Source: an uncultured Gemmataceae bacterium (GTDB lineage: Bacteria > Planctomycetota > Planctomycetia > Gemmatales > Gemmataceae). From it: DNA of 33,619 nt. Shown here one piece after another: positions 31,609 to 33,171 of this stretch (the first letter of the stretch is position 1; the number at the start of each line of letters is the position of its first letter). The stretch lies in contig CAWUOE010000001.1 of assembly GCA_963923355.1 (NCBI GenBank), forward strand, positions 1 through 33,619, written 5' to 3'. The position numbers were made by a program, and so were the translations under genes. The notes beneath the pieces are model-generated. The model was not told the origin of the DNA. It made no database searches and was given only the letters and a program-made list of their open reading frames with translations.

Positions 31609-33171
31609 ATGAAAACGACTGAAACGGGTGCGAGCATCCCAGGGAATTCAGGAAGGCCACTGGGGCTGTACCTAGGGATAGGGCTGGCTGGCGTGGCCGG
31701 CCTTGGGATTGGATTGGTTGCGAAAACAGCCTGGCAAAAGTCCTTCACCCATACGGCGCGCTCGACAACGCTGGTGACAGCGAATTCGGACAGCACGAAT
31801 TATTTCTCCAAGTCGGAGCCCACTGCGGCGGACAAGTCGATCCTGCAGGATGCTTTTGTGGAAGCTTTTGGCCCGCCCGCCGGCTTGCCTGCCGGTTTGG
31901 CGCAGGCGGCCACGGAATTGCCGGCACCGGAAATCCCCACCCTCTCCCTGGCACAAGCGCAAGCGCCGGTCCAGAAAATCGGCCCGGGGCCCAAACCGGG
32001 TATTCGACCCAAGACACAAGATCCTTTAGCCCCTCTGGCTTTGGGCCCCAAAATCATCCGCCATATAGGACCTGACGGGCTAGAGCGGATCGGAATTGAT
32101 TTCGAAAATTCCCAGCAGGGCCAAAATCCACCCATTCAAATCATCAGAAGGTTCGGGCACCCCTGGCAGGCAAAAGTGTGGGCAATTGCCCAAAACATGG
32201 ATAAAAAAGACCTTGATAACCTGAAGGAATGGGCTGGCAATTCAGCAATCAAGGTTCTGATCCAAGACGATTGGAGCGATGGCTCGGCAGCCTCCCTCCT
32301 GGAGATGGATGAGGACTTTTTCAATGGTTTAGGCAGTATCCTCGTCCAACGTCGGAGCCCTGACGGCACGACACGGGTCGGCGTGGACACGGACCGTCTG
32401 GGGCGAGATTTCAACCTGGTGATCCCCGCCAAAGAGAAGGCTCCCAAGCAGGGCAACAGAAACAATCAGATTGCCCAATCCGAGGCCCAGCCAGGCATTT
32501 TTGACGGGCTGATCCAGCAGGCAGGGTTCTTCATCCCTTCAGGCGACGCAACAAACACCGATGGCAAGCAATCCGGCGGGGGAGCTGGAGGTATGGCAAA
32601 GGTTGGCCCATCGACTCCCATGGGGATAGACAAAGGCACGTTGGGTTCGCAGGAACCGGAACCACTGATCGGTTCGTTCACCACCGAATTTGAGGATGGC
32701 TACCTGAAACTGCCCGAGGAGCTGGCCGGCTGGGTTGTGGAGGGGAAAGTCTTCATCGCGCCGGGACCGGACGGCGGGCTGCGCATGGCAACCCTGGACG
32801 ATCTTGAGACGATGTTCGGTATCGAGAACGAGCCACCTTCCCACCGTGGTGGCGAGGTTTCCGCCAGCGAACAGGCTCAAGCCATTCAATCGATGCGCCG
32901 TAACATGCGTCGGTTTTACGGGCTGATGACCGCCTGCGTGCCCGAAGAGGACGAGGATGGCAACCTGTGGATTCCCCTGGGAGACCAGATTGCCAAGCAA
33001 GCGGGTCTCTCGGGCGAAGTGGTGATCGCGGGAATGCGGACGCATGCGGAGATCTGGTCCAAGGCACGCTGGGAAGCTGAACTGGCCCAACCCAAAGGGC
33101 AAGAAGCACCCAAGCCCCTGGAACTTCAAAAAGTGGAGATCCGATCCAAGGCGTCCACCCAGGCCAAATGA
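31609..33171 (+). CDS. Membrane-anchored protein with a C-terminal MraZ-like (double SpoVT/AbrB) domain
   Basis: AGGGAG Shine-Dalgarno lies 5 nt before ATG 31609. The TM helix LGLYLGIGLAGVAGLGIGLVA spans about 31657-31722, followed by a ~310-aa Pro-rich/unknown region. Residues ~353-493 align along their whole length with the adjacent MraZ. Confidence 0.85.
   Translation: MKTTETGASIPGNSGRPLGLYLGIGLAGVAGLGIGLVAKTAWQKSFTHTARSTTLVTANSDSTNYFSKSEPTAADKSILQDAFVEAFGPPAGLPAGLAQAATELPAPEIPTLSLAQAQAPVQKIGPGPKPGIRPKTQDPLAPLALGPKIIRHIGPDGLERIGIDFENSQQGQNPPIQIIRRFGHPWQAKVWAIAQNMDKKDLDNLKEWAGNSAIKVLIQDDWSDGSAASLLEMDEDFFNGLGSILVQRRSPDGTTRVGVDTDRLGRDFNLVIPAKEKAPKQGNRNNQIAQSEAQPGIFDGLIQQAGFFIPSGDATNTDGKQSGGGAGGMAKVGPSTPMGIDKGTLGSQEPEPLIGSFTTEFEDGYLKLPEELAGWVVEGKVFIAPGPDGGLRMATLDDLETMFGIENEPPSHRGGEVSASEQAQAIQSMRRNMRRFYGLMTACVPEEDEDGNLWIPLGDQIAKQAGLSGEVVIAGMRTHAEIWSKARWEAELAQPKGQEAPKPLELQKVEIRSKASTQAK
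32665..33087 (+). other. MraZ-like domain of the 520-aa protein
   Basis: Repeat 1 is FEDGYLKLPEELAGWVVEGKVFIAPGPDGGL, compared with MraZ FDDKKRLTLPKKVREVLGEPAVLYIAPGPDKCL. Repeat 2 is DEDGNLWIPLGDQIAKQAGLSGEVVIAGMRTHAEIWSKARW, compared with MraZ [40 protein letters not shown]. Confidence 0.75.

Follow-up and report, generated by a model that had tools for sequence, protein, structure and literature searches.

A membrane-tethered MraZ paralogue lacking the DNA-contact residues lies in the mraZ operon of a Gemmataceae bacterium, next to a predicted LysM protein gene

RESULTS

The window analysed here, that is, the whole stretch of 33,619 nucleotides of contig CAWUOE010000001.1 from an uncultured Gemmataceae bacterium, contains an mraZ operon whose third gene encodes a membrane-tethered paralogue of MraZ. 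This gene (positions 31609..33171, ATG start; all operon features given below lie on the + strand) specifies a predicted bitopic protein of 520 amino acids (aa). Its C-terminal MraZ-fold domain (aa 352-492, 32662..33084) comprises two SpoVT/AbrB-like halves and has a net charge of about -10. A preliminary description of the DNA had reported this open reading frame (ORF) with a single N-terminal transmembrane (TM) helix, and both were borne out by the ORF and a hydropathy scan. The reading we favour, to which we give an even chance, is that of an N-in/C-out envelope protein that would hold a DNA-blind MraZ fold in the periplasm and work with a LysM protein encoded by the next gene, named here partner Y.

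A C-terminal domain derived from MraZ

The preliminary description had aligned the C-terminal part over both repeats with the canonical MraZ encoded 1.3 kb upstream, and the homology held. By BLASTP, aa 353-498 of the paralogue matched aa 13-143 of the neighbouring MraZ with 33% identity (pairwise E value of 1e-15), and the IAPGPD block was identical in the two proteins. An hhalign comparison of six family C-terminal domains with 21 canonical planctomycete MraZ sequences gave a probability of 99.1% and an E value of 9.8e-19 over 127 columns, covering both MraZ halves. A Pfam match to MraZ (PF02381), one of the checks proposed earlier, was present in the single sequence, but its 17.1 bits fell below the gathering cut-off (GA) of 23, and the TIGR00242 score of 28.5 bits was likewise below the cut-off of 98.35; the profile comparison was significant.

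We then modelled aa 340-520 with AlphaFold2 (AF2) using an alignment of 42 sequences (pLDDT 82.2, pTM 0.72). When the model was compared with the PDB by Foldseek, as had also been proposed, the top 16 matches were all MraZ structures (9QLG, 9SZ7, 9R4J and 1N0E among them), with E values of ~2e-9 and target-normalised template modelling scores of 0.71-0.78, and the first match after these 16 had an E value of 0.15. This structural match corroborates the homology but is not independent of it, because the AF2 alignment contained canonical MraZ sequences. On sequence comparison, the C-terminal domain was confirmed as a genuine MraZ-derived domain carried on a predicted membrane anchor.

The domain displays the tandem two-half SpoVT/AbrB-like organisation of MraZ. 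It shares with the MraZ proteins of E. coli and Mycoplasma (1N0E, 9QLG, 9SZ7) the swapped-hairpin fold with flanking helices, it has the PGPD and G(V/M)xxHxE(I/L)W blocks in common with MraZ, and its gene lies in the same operon, 1.3 kb downstream of mraZ. Unlike MraZ, the paralogue has 520 aa with one N-terminal TM helix and a linker of ~300 aa, is probably periplasmic and is encoded by the third gene, a separate canonical mraZ holding the first position.

The ratio of nonsynonymous to synonymous substitutions (dN/dS) was calculated by the Nei-Gojobori method against two orthologues, at a dS of about 0.9. The whole gene gave 0.16-0.22; by region, the ratio was 0.39-0.40 in the N-tail and TM helix (aa 1-45), 0.18-0.23 in the linker (aa 46-340) and 0.06-0.14 in the MraZ-like domain, where more than 60 positions do not vary among family members with as little as 52% identity. 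Purifying selection on the domain is thus strong. A decaying or neutral mraZ duplicate without a function of its own might score under the Pfam and TIGRFAM thresholds and belong to a very narrow family (7 clusters), as this one does. With so low a domain dN/dS, so many invariant residues and a synteny kept across deeply diverged lineages, that explanation is barely credible, and the dN/dS values effectively refute it.

Loss of the DNA-contact residues

In the structure of Mycoplasma genitalium MraZ obtained by cryo-electron microscopy, the GTG(T/G) boxes are recognised by Lys13, Arg15 and Arg86, with Asp11 and Asp82 keeping the two arginines in place (DXXXR motif), and a single alanine mutation at Lys13, Arg15 or Arg86 is enough to abolish DNA binding (PMC12957436). 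Canonical planctomycete MraZ proteins, the copy in the window included, retain D-x-K-x-R and D-x-x-x-R. In the paralogue, the first cradle loop, which replaces D-x-K-x-R, reads FEDGYLKLP (32689..32715), with Tyr in place of Arg and a one-residue deletion; the second, which replaces D-x-x-x-R, reads EEDEDGNLWIP (32944..32976), with Asn in place of Arg. FEDG-Y and EDEDGN thus stand in for DDKKR and DKAGR. The absence of the arginine from both repeats had been noticed in the preliminary description, whose ranges for the two motifs (32689-32715 and 32950-32976) were right, except that one codon precedes the residues it listed. The loss extends to the Lys13 equivalent, which is Gly or Asp, and in 10/10 family members other residues stand at the positions equivalent to K13, R15 and R86. 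By the DXXXR motifs and the three DNA-contact residues, the paralogue falls outside MraZ.

The net charge of the two cradle loops is -2 and -5 in the paralogue and +2 and +1 in the neighbouring MraZ; for the domain core the values are -10 and 0, respectively. As the contact Lys and Arg residues are lost and the cradle is acidic, the domain probably no longer binds DNA.

The retained MraZ fold and the complementary charges of the two cradles would suit a membrane-tethered anti-MraZ, the mechanism put forward in the preliminary description. With its domain in the cytoplasm (N-out/C-in), the paralogue would co-assemble with MraZ in rings or mimic DNA, titrating MraZ off its GTGGG operator. We consider this rather unlikely. 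MraZ forms rings of 8-12 subunits through helices, the interface being alpha2-loop-alpha3 (PMC12957436). It is in this helical segment that the paralogue family has a specific insertion, and the C-terminal helix of MraZ is replaced by a Pro-containing basic tail, both of which argue against such a partnership. Moreover, the cradle is non-acidic in the wider class of tethered proteins described below, and DNA mimicry would therefore not be the ancestral function.

Placement behind the MraZ operator

The mraZ operon is bounded at its 5' side by an intrinsic-terminator-like hairpin with a 13 bp stem and a T-run (29673..29703), which terminates the preceding gene. Downstream lie a candidate sigma-70-like promoter, TTGCCA-16-GATACT (29743..29770), recognised by its consensus match alone, and a canonical MraZ operator of three GTGGG boxes with an exact 10-bp period (29784..29808). 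The three-box pattern gave 1 match upstream of mraZ and 0 in 100 shuffles, and the array is kept in the relatives at loci L001, L002, L003 and L007. Canonical mraZ encodes 147 aa from a GTG at 29858 (29858..30301; the listed ORF begins at a TTG at 29828). It is followed by rsmH (mraW; 30552..31550), which encodes the 16S rRNA m4C1402 methyltransferase (TIGR00006, 283 bits). Canonical MraZ and its operator are, by all these features, predicted to be intact.

The gap between rsmH and the tethered paralogue is 58 bp and that between the paralogue and partner Y ~68 bp; only the 5' part of partner Y (33240..33619) is contained in the window, as the gene runs off its end. Owing to the upstream terminator, the promoter-like site, the operator and these short gaps, the paralogue is predicted to share a transcription unit with mraZ and rsmH, behind the MraZ operator. 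An anti-MraZ encoded in MraZ's own operon, behind an intact operator, would be well placed. Nevertheless, at one locus of the wider class (L010, 5663-7981) a tethered LysM/MraZ-like gene follows rsmH with no canonical mraZ adjoining, which argues against that mechanism. At L010 the tethered gene comes in two parts, one of 113 aa with the TM helix and one of 326 aa, possibly through a frameshift or an assembly error.

A conserved LysM partner gene

Syntenic orthologues, for which the preliminary description had proposed a search, occur outside this genome, and their loci have the same gene order. The order is mraZ, rsmH, tethered paralogue, a gene for a 560-790-aa protein, and a GT4 glycosyltransferase gene at every close-family locus with enough sequence, and at the locus of family member P0156 rsmH and the tethered gene overlap by 4 nt. 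At L001 (6769-7914, GCA_002331825 contig) rsmH is in two pieces; it is intact in the near-identical L002 and L007, and the break is probably an assembly frameshift. Loci of the wider class (L011, L012/13 and L014) show mraZ, rsmH, a tethered MraZ-like gene and a gene for a large Pfam-less protein whose N-terminus is homologous to partner Y of the window. The pairing of tethered paralogue and partner recurs at every locus examined.

Full copies of partner Y were available at L001 (9633-11975), L005 (9269-11329) and L028 (8749-10428). The protein, also bitopic, starts with an N-tail MT(S/R)E.K.G, followed by a TM helix, a Pro/Ala-rich spacer of several hundred residues, Asn-rich repeats and a C-terminal LysM domain, a domain type that binds glycans or peptidoglycan. 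The Asn-rich helical repeats ('LNNxLNN') gave weak apolipoprotein-like matches. Single-sequence Pfam matches to LysM were weak at first (E value of 0.04), and the assignment was resolved by comparing a profile of 10 sequences with the PDB, which matched LytE (9.4e-12), 4UZ2 (3.9e-9), Kbp (3.5e-6) and TsaP (3.7e-5). The Pfam LysM family (PF01476) matched the L011 partner with 25.2 bits, above the GA of 20.9, and the partners of the close lineage with 16.4-18.6 bits. Partner Y thus possesses the beta-alpha-alpha-beta domain of LysM.

The two neighbours resemble each other in having short conserved N-tails, Gly/Ala-rich TM helices and very long Pro-rich spacers. Partner Y also mirrors the layout of FtsN, with a TM helix, a Pro-rich linker and a C-terminal cell-wall-binding domain, but it uses LysM rather than SPOR. 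The GT4 glycosyltransferase gene lies 3' of partner Y at L001 (12027-13247), L005 (11376-12596) and L028 (10499-11716). It is absent from this position in the wider class (L011, L012, L014), and could belong to the module as a fifth gene confined to the close lineage.

Anchor, linker and tail

The invariant N-tail MKTTE is followed by a Gly/Ala-rich TM helix of the small-xxx-small type (31666..31722). The helix had been placed at aa 17-38; it is there, but by hydropathy it extends over aa 20-38, with a mean Kyte-Doolittle value of 2.01 in a 19-residue window. The second-best window reached 0.8, so that a single TM helix is predicted. A conserved helix and the motif EAFGPPAGLP come next (aa 69-94, 31813..31890), the helix spanning aa 73-87. 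The internal repeat seen in the preliminary description is real, and consists of two copies of a motif. Copy 1, IRHIGPDGLERIGIDFE (aa 150-166, 32056..32106), is also found in proteins with a signal peptide or lipobox; copy 2, VQRRSPDGTTRVGVDTDRLGRDF (aa 246-268, 32344..32412), is degenerate and ends an optional alpha/beta insert (about aa 167-290) seen in some family members only. In relatives the second copy is nearer the consensus (GADGLARIGVDTD in L001). A conserved Gly-rich segment, DGKQSGGGAGGMAKVGP (aa 318-334, 32560..32610), precedes the MraZ-like domain, and the protein ends in a family-specific, conserved basic tail, PKPLELQKVEIRSKASTQAK (33109..33168), with the pattern PKPLELQKVE.R.K. 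The N-terminal and middle regions had no match in Pfam or NCBIfam even at an E value of 10. A full-length AF2 model built on the family alignment of 10 sequences was unusable (pLDDT 37).

The gene occupies the ftsL position directly after rsmH, as first described, and its product shares with FtsL a bitopic, here probably N-in/C-out, architecture with a short N-tail. With the conserved helix at aa 73-87, this might indicate a diverged divisome subunit of the FtsL type, whose function would reside in the TM helix and the juxtamembrane region, the MraZ fold being accessory. However, no FtsL or DivIC profile of Pfam or NCBIfam matched at E values up to 1, there is no sequence similarity to these proteins, and no coiled coil or leucine zipper was predicted (in a low-confidence AF2 model). 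The strongest constraint falls on the MraZ-like domain (0.06-0.14) rather than on the juxtamembrane part, and FtsW, a member of the FtsL-dependent divisome, has been lost in these orders together with most lipid-II genes (PMC12283558). We regard an FtsL-type subunit as quite improbable.

Which side of the membrane

The topology bears directly on the proposed mechanisms, in that a periplasmic domain could not sequester cytoplasmic MraZ. The preliminary description had seen more positive charge after the TM helix than before it and, by the positive-inside rule, had placed the domain in the cytoplasm. The count is correct for the 520-aa sequence, with 2 Lys and Arg residues before the helix and 3 after it, but among the 10 aligned family sequences it is reversed in 7, which favours N-in, and tied in 2. 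The positive-inside argument for a cytoplasmic domain thus fails across the family and does not decide the side, the Lys/Arg bias being variable and net charges near zero.

Two other, independent lines of evidence point to the periplasm. Firstly, some positional orthologues (P0035 at L014, P0118 at L010, P0062, P0089 and P0091) carry LysM of the partner's type within the tethered protein itself, after the Pro-rich linker and directly in front of the MraZ-like domain. No second TM helix was found in these LysM-fused proteins. Since the two domains are joined in one chain with a single TM helix, they must lie on the same side of the membrane, and bacterial LysM domains are normally extracytoplasmic. 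Secondly, the motif of the middle region, GPDGLERIGIDFE (IGxDGLERIG[IV]DF[DE]), occurs outside the family in exported proteins, all credible carriers (six proteins) having an export signal. One of them, P0015, is a 1209-aa protein with two copies of the motif (E value of 2e-8) and a signal peptide, MARFSRLRRSAALLL..ATSA. Three others, P0150, P0151 and P0152, have 48-64 aa and were the sole matches of a word-indexed motif search among 5.8 billion sequences (E values of 7e-6 to 2e-3); P0151 (L015, 1367-1513) has the lipobox LLLGC and ends exactly at ..GVDFD. The ORF at L016 carries the export signal ..LAPLPLASA|DEP, and that at L024 also has an N-terminal export signal. A motif scan of metagenome DNA yielded 12 hits, among which L017, L019, L021 and L022 were discarded as antisense, Arg-rich ORFs and L020 and L026 were set aside uninterpreted. 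No Pfam family matched the motif carriers scanned (the 520-aa protein, P0015 and the L016 and L024 ORFs). As the motif is otherwise restricted to exported proteins, the part of the 520-aa protein that follows the TM helix is likely to be outside the cytoplasm.

The motif carriers differ in build. In the tiny proteins with a signal peptide or lipobox the motif stands at the C-terminus; in larger exported coiled-coil proteins it comes after a secretin-like 'LPY(V/L)NRLFKN' segment.

Several points weigh against the reading that we favour. Net-charge differences across the TM helix are near zero in the family, and two of the LysM-fused relatives, P0062 and P0091, have more Lys and Arg after the helix than before it. 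LysM may not be a strict marker of the extracytoplasmic side, as the LysM profile also matched Kbp, a cytoplasmic LysM protein and an exception in this respect. The evidence from the export-linked motif comes from six proteins, and the fold match depends on sequence homology, canonical MraZ having been part of the AF2 alignment. A role in a scaffold or in division would rest on gene position, architecture and the partner. Finally, an MraZ or AbrB fold outside the cytoplasm is, to our knowledge, without precedent.

Some of these points would serve an anti-MraZ in the cytoplasm. The Lys/Arg excess after the TM helix in the 520-aa sequence, P0062 and P0091 is what its N-out/C-in topology calls for, and both a cytoplasmic LysM protein (Kbp) and the architecture of TM helix, Pro-rich linker and globular domain in the cytoplasm (ZipA) exist. 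In evolutionary terms, it would also take less to anchor a cytoplasmic duplicate at the inner membrane face than to export it. Against this stand the Lys/Arg bias, reversed or tied in 9/10 aligned sequences, the LysM domain fused beside the MraZ-like domain in orthologues, and the middle-region motif found otherwise in exported proteins only. Like the paralogue, ZipA and anti-sigma factors have one N-terminal TM helix, from which a Pro-rich linker leads to a globular binding domain at the C-terminus. ZipA has an N-out/C-in topology, and it and such anti-regulators face the cytoplasm, whereas the evidence for the paralogue points to the periplasm. Taking both sides together, we consider that an N-in/C-out, FtsL-like topology is probable and is to be preferred over a cytoplasmic domain. 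The tethered anti-MraZ of the preliminary description is not favoured, given the evidence for the periplasm and the L010 locus without mraZ.

The close family and a wider tethered class

A word-indexed search of 5.8 billion proteins returned 10 close-family proteins, and an exhaustive hidden Markov model search of 1.84 billion cluster representatives returned 7 clusters at E values <= 1e-30. All close-family members come from metagenome-assembled genomes (MAGs) of the Gemmataceae type. A scan of species-representative genomes found the family in three MAGs, labelled Gemmataceae or 'Planctomycetaceae', and cluster look-ups for the tethered proteins gave metagenome or MAG sources exclusively. 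The most divergent member is P0156, in whose close cluster-mate P0011 the domain shows 52% identity.

Ranking below the close family, the exhaustive model search returned canonical MraZ as well as a wider class of 230-490-aa proteins with an N-terminal hydrophobic anchor, a Pro-rich linker and a C-terminal MraZ domain, encoded on planctomycete-type metagenome contigs (for example P0016, P0020, P0035, P0062, P0066, P0091 and P0126). Their Pfam MraZ scores of 50-70 bits exceed the threshold, and their identity to canonical MraZ is 39-44%. Most of them have a degenerate first-repeat Arg, and the second-repeat Arg is lost in some and kept in several. They share with the close family the locus position, the N-terminal TM helix, the Pro-rich linker and a partner with a homologous N-terminus. 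They differ from it in lacking the GPDGLERIGIDFE motif, the Gly-rich segment, the acidic cradle and the basic tail, and some carry LysM in the same chain, unlike the close family. Because of the shared locus organisation and the homologous partner N-terminus, the 520-aa protein is best placed, on present comparisons, as the extreme, most derived branch of a conserved mraZ duplicate ('MraZ2') on planctomycete-type contigs.

The fold and its parent family, MraZ, are already known. In the open-access literature searched, we found no description of an MraZ paralogue or of a tethered MraZ. The earlier statement that no fusion of this kind had been described holds for that literature, but planctomycete tethered MraZ-like proteins are already numerous in databases, where those of the wider class go under 'MraZ protein' or 'hypothetical protein [Planctomycetota bacterium]'. 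What appears to be undescribed there is the predicted combination of a TM helix, a linker with an export-associated motif and an acidic MraZ fold that lacks the DNA-contact residues, as well as its probable compartment and its pairing with a LysM protein in FtsZ-less planctomycetes.

Neighbouring genes

Upstream of the operon, with conserved synteny, lies a gene for an LD-carboxypeptidase of the Peptidase_S66 family with a signal-peptide-like N-terminus, MRAPLASLAILAFTGFSMG.. (27751-28776, +). It hints at peptidoglycan-peptide processing in the periplasm, though the order is reported to lack most mur genes. Between it and the mraZ operon, a gene with the terminator 3' of it encodes a 185-aa protein with a Pro/Gln-rich N-half (29086-29643, +), which had no Pfam match; small Pfam-less genes are present at this position in L001-L006 and L012. 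Elsewhere in the window are genes for a Ser/Thr kinase fused to a periplasmic-binding-protein domain (224-3247), a bacterial serpin (7952-9202) and an MMPL/RND-type transporter with a sterol-sensing-like domain (18728-21568). The GC content, ~0.61 overall, dips to 0.51 at 13001-14000 and 0.55 at 18001-19000, in intergenic or gene-boundary regions.

DISCUSSION

The favoured reading of an envelope protein can be set out as follows. A duplicate of mraZ has been joined to a sequence for a TM anchor and a long linker. The short conserved tail (MKTTE..) would stay in the cytoplasm, followed by the single Gly/Ala-rich TM helix in a type-II orientation, and the long Pro-rich spacer with its one or two GPDGLERIGIDFE motifs would span the periplasm. 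The C-terminal domain is predicted to retain the swapped-hairpin fold of MraZ without the Lys and Arg residues that read GTGGG, its cradle being strongly acidic. It may have been co-opted for protein binding or oligomerisation, with the acidic cradle and the conserved basic tail as speculative interaction surfaces. The paralogue, whose gene in all likelihood shares a transcript with canonical mraZ and rsmH downstream of the intact MraZ operator, would act with the LysM partner, and perhaps with the GT4 glycosyltransferase in the close lineage. We infer that the pair could form an envelope or division-related scaffold in lineages without FtsZ and most of the dcw cluster. The long spacers of both proteins would suit the enlarged planctomycete periplasm.

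The genes murA/C/D/F/G, murJ and ftsW are reported to be missing from the orders Gemmatales, Isosphaerales and Pirellulales, in addition to ftsZ, ftsA and ftsB, whose loss is shared with other Planctomycetota, a phylum that divides without FtsZ (PMC12283558). In view of these losses, the module would represent the remnant of the dcw cluster's head in these orders. A bolder and doubtful extension is that the exported MraZ fold and the LysM protein build an oligomeric, possibly ring-like scaffold, a core part of an FtsZ-independent machinery for division or budding and for the envelope in Gemmatales, Pirellulales and Isosphaerales. Expression of the scaffold would then still be under the control of the ancestral MraZ repressor. 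If true, this would be the first extracytoplasmic structural use of a DNA-binding fold of the AbrB/MraZ type.

The findings should be of interest for planctomycete cell biology and for research on MraZ. They draw attention to a short, previously unnoticed motif, IGxDGLERIGVDFD, common to the tethered paralogue and to small exported proteins and lipoproteins. The paralogue also appears to be a clear case of a transcription-factor fold turned to a non-DNA role next to its parent gene. The dcw stub of these lineages exceeds mraZ-rsmH and would constitute an MraZ-operated module with a tethered paralogue and a TM/LysM protein, which provides two concrete candidate envelope or division genes for planctomycetes that divide without FtsZ.

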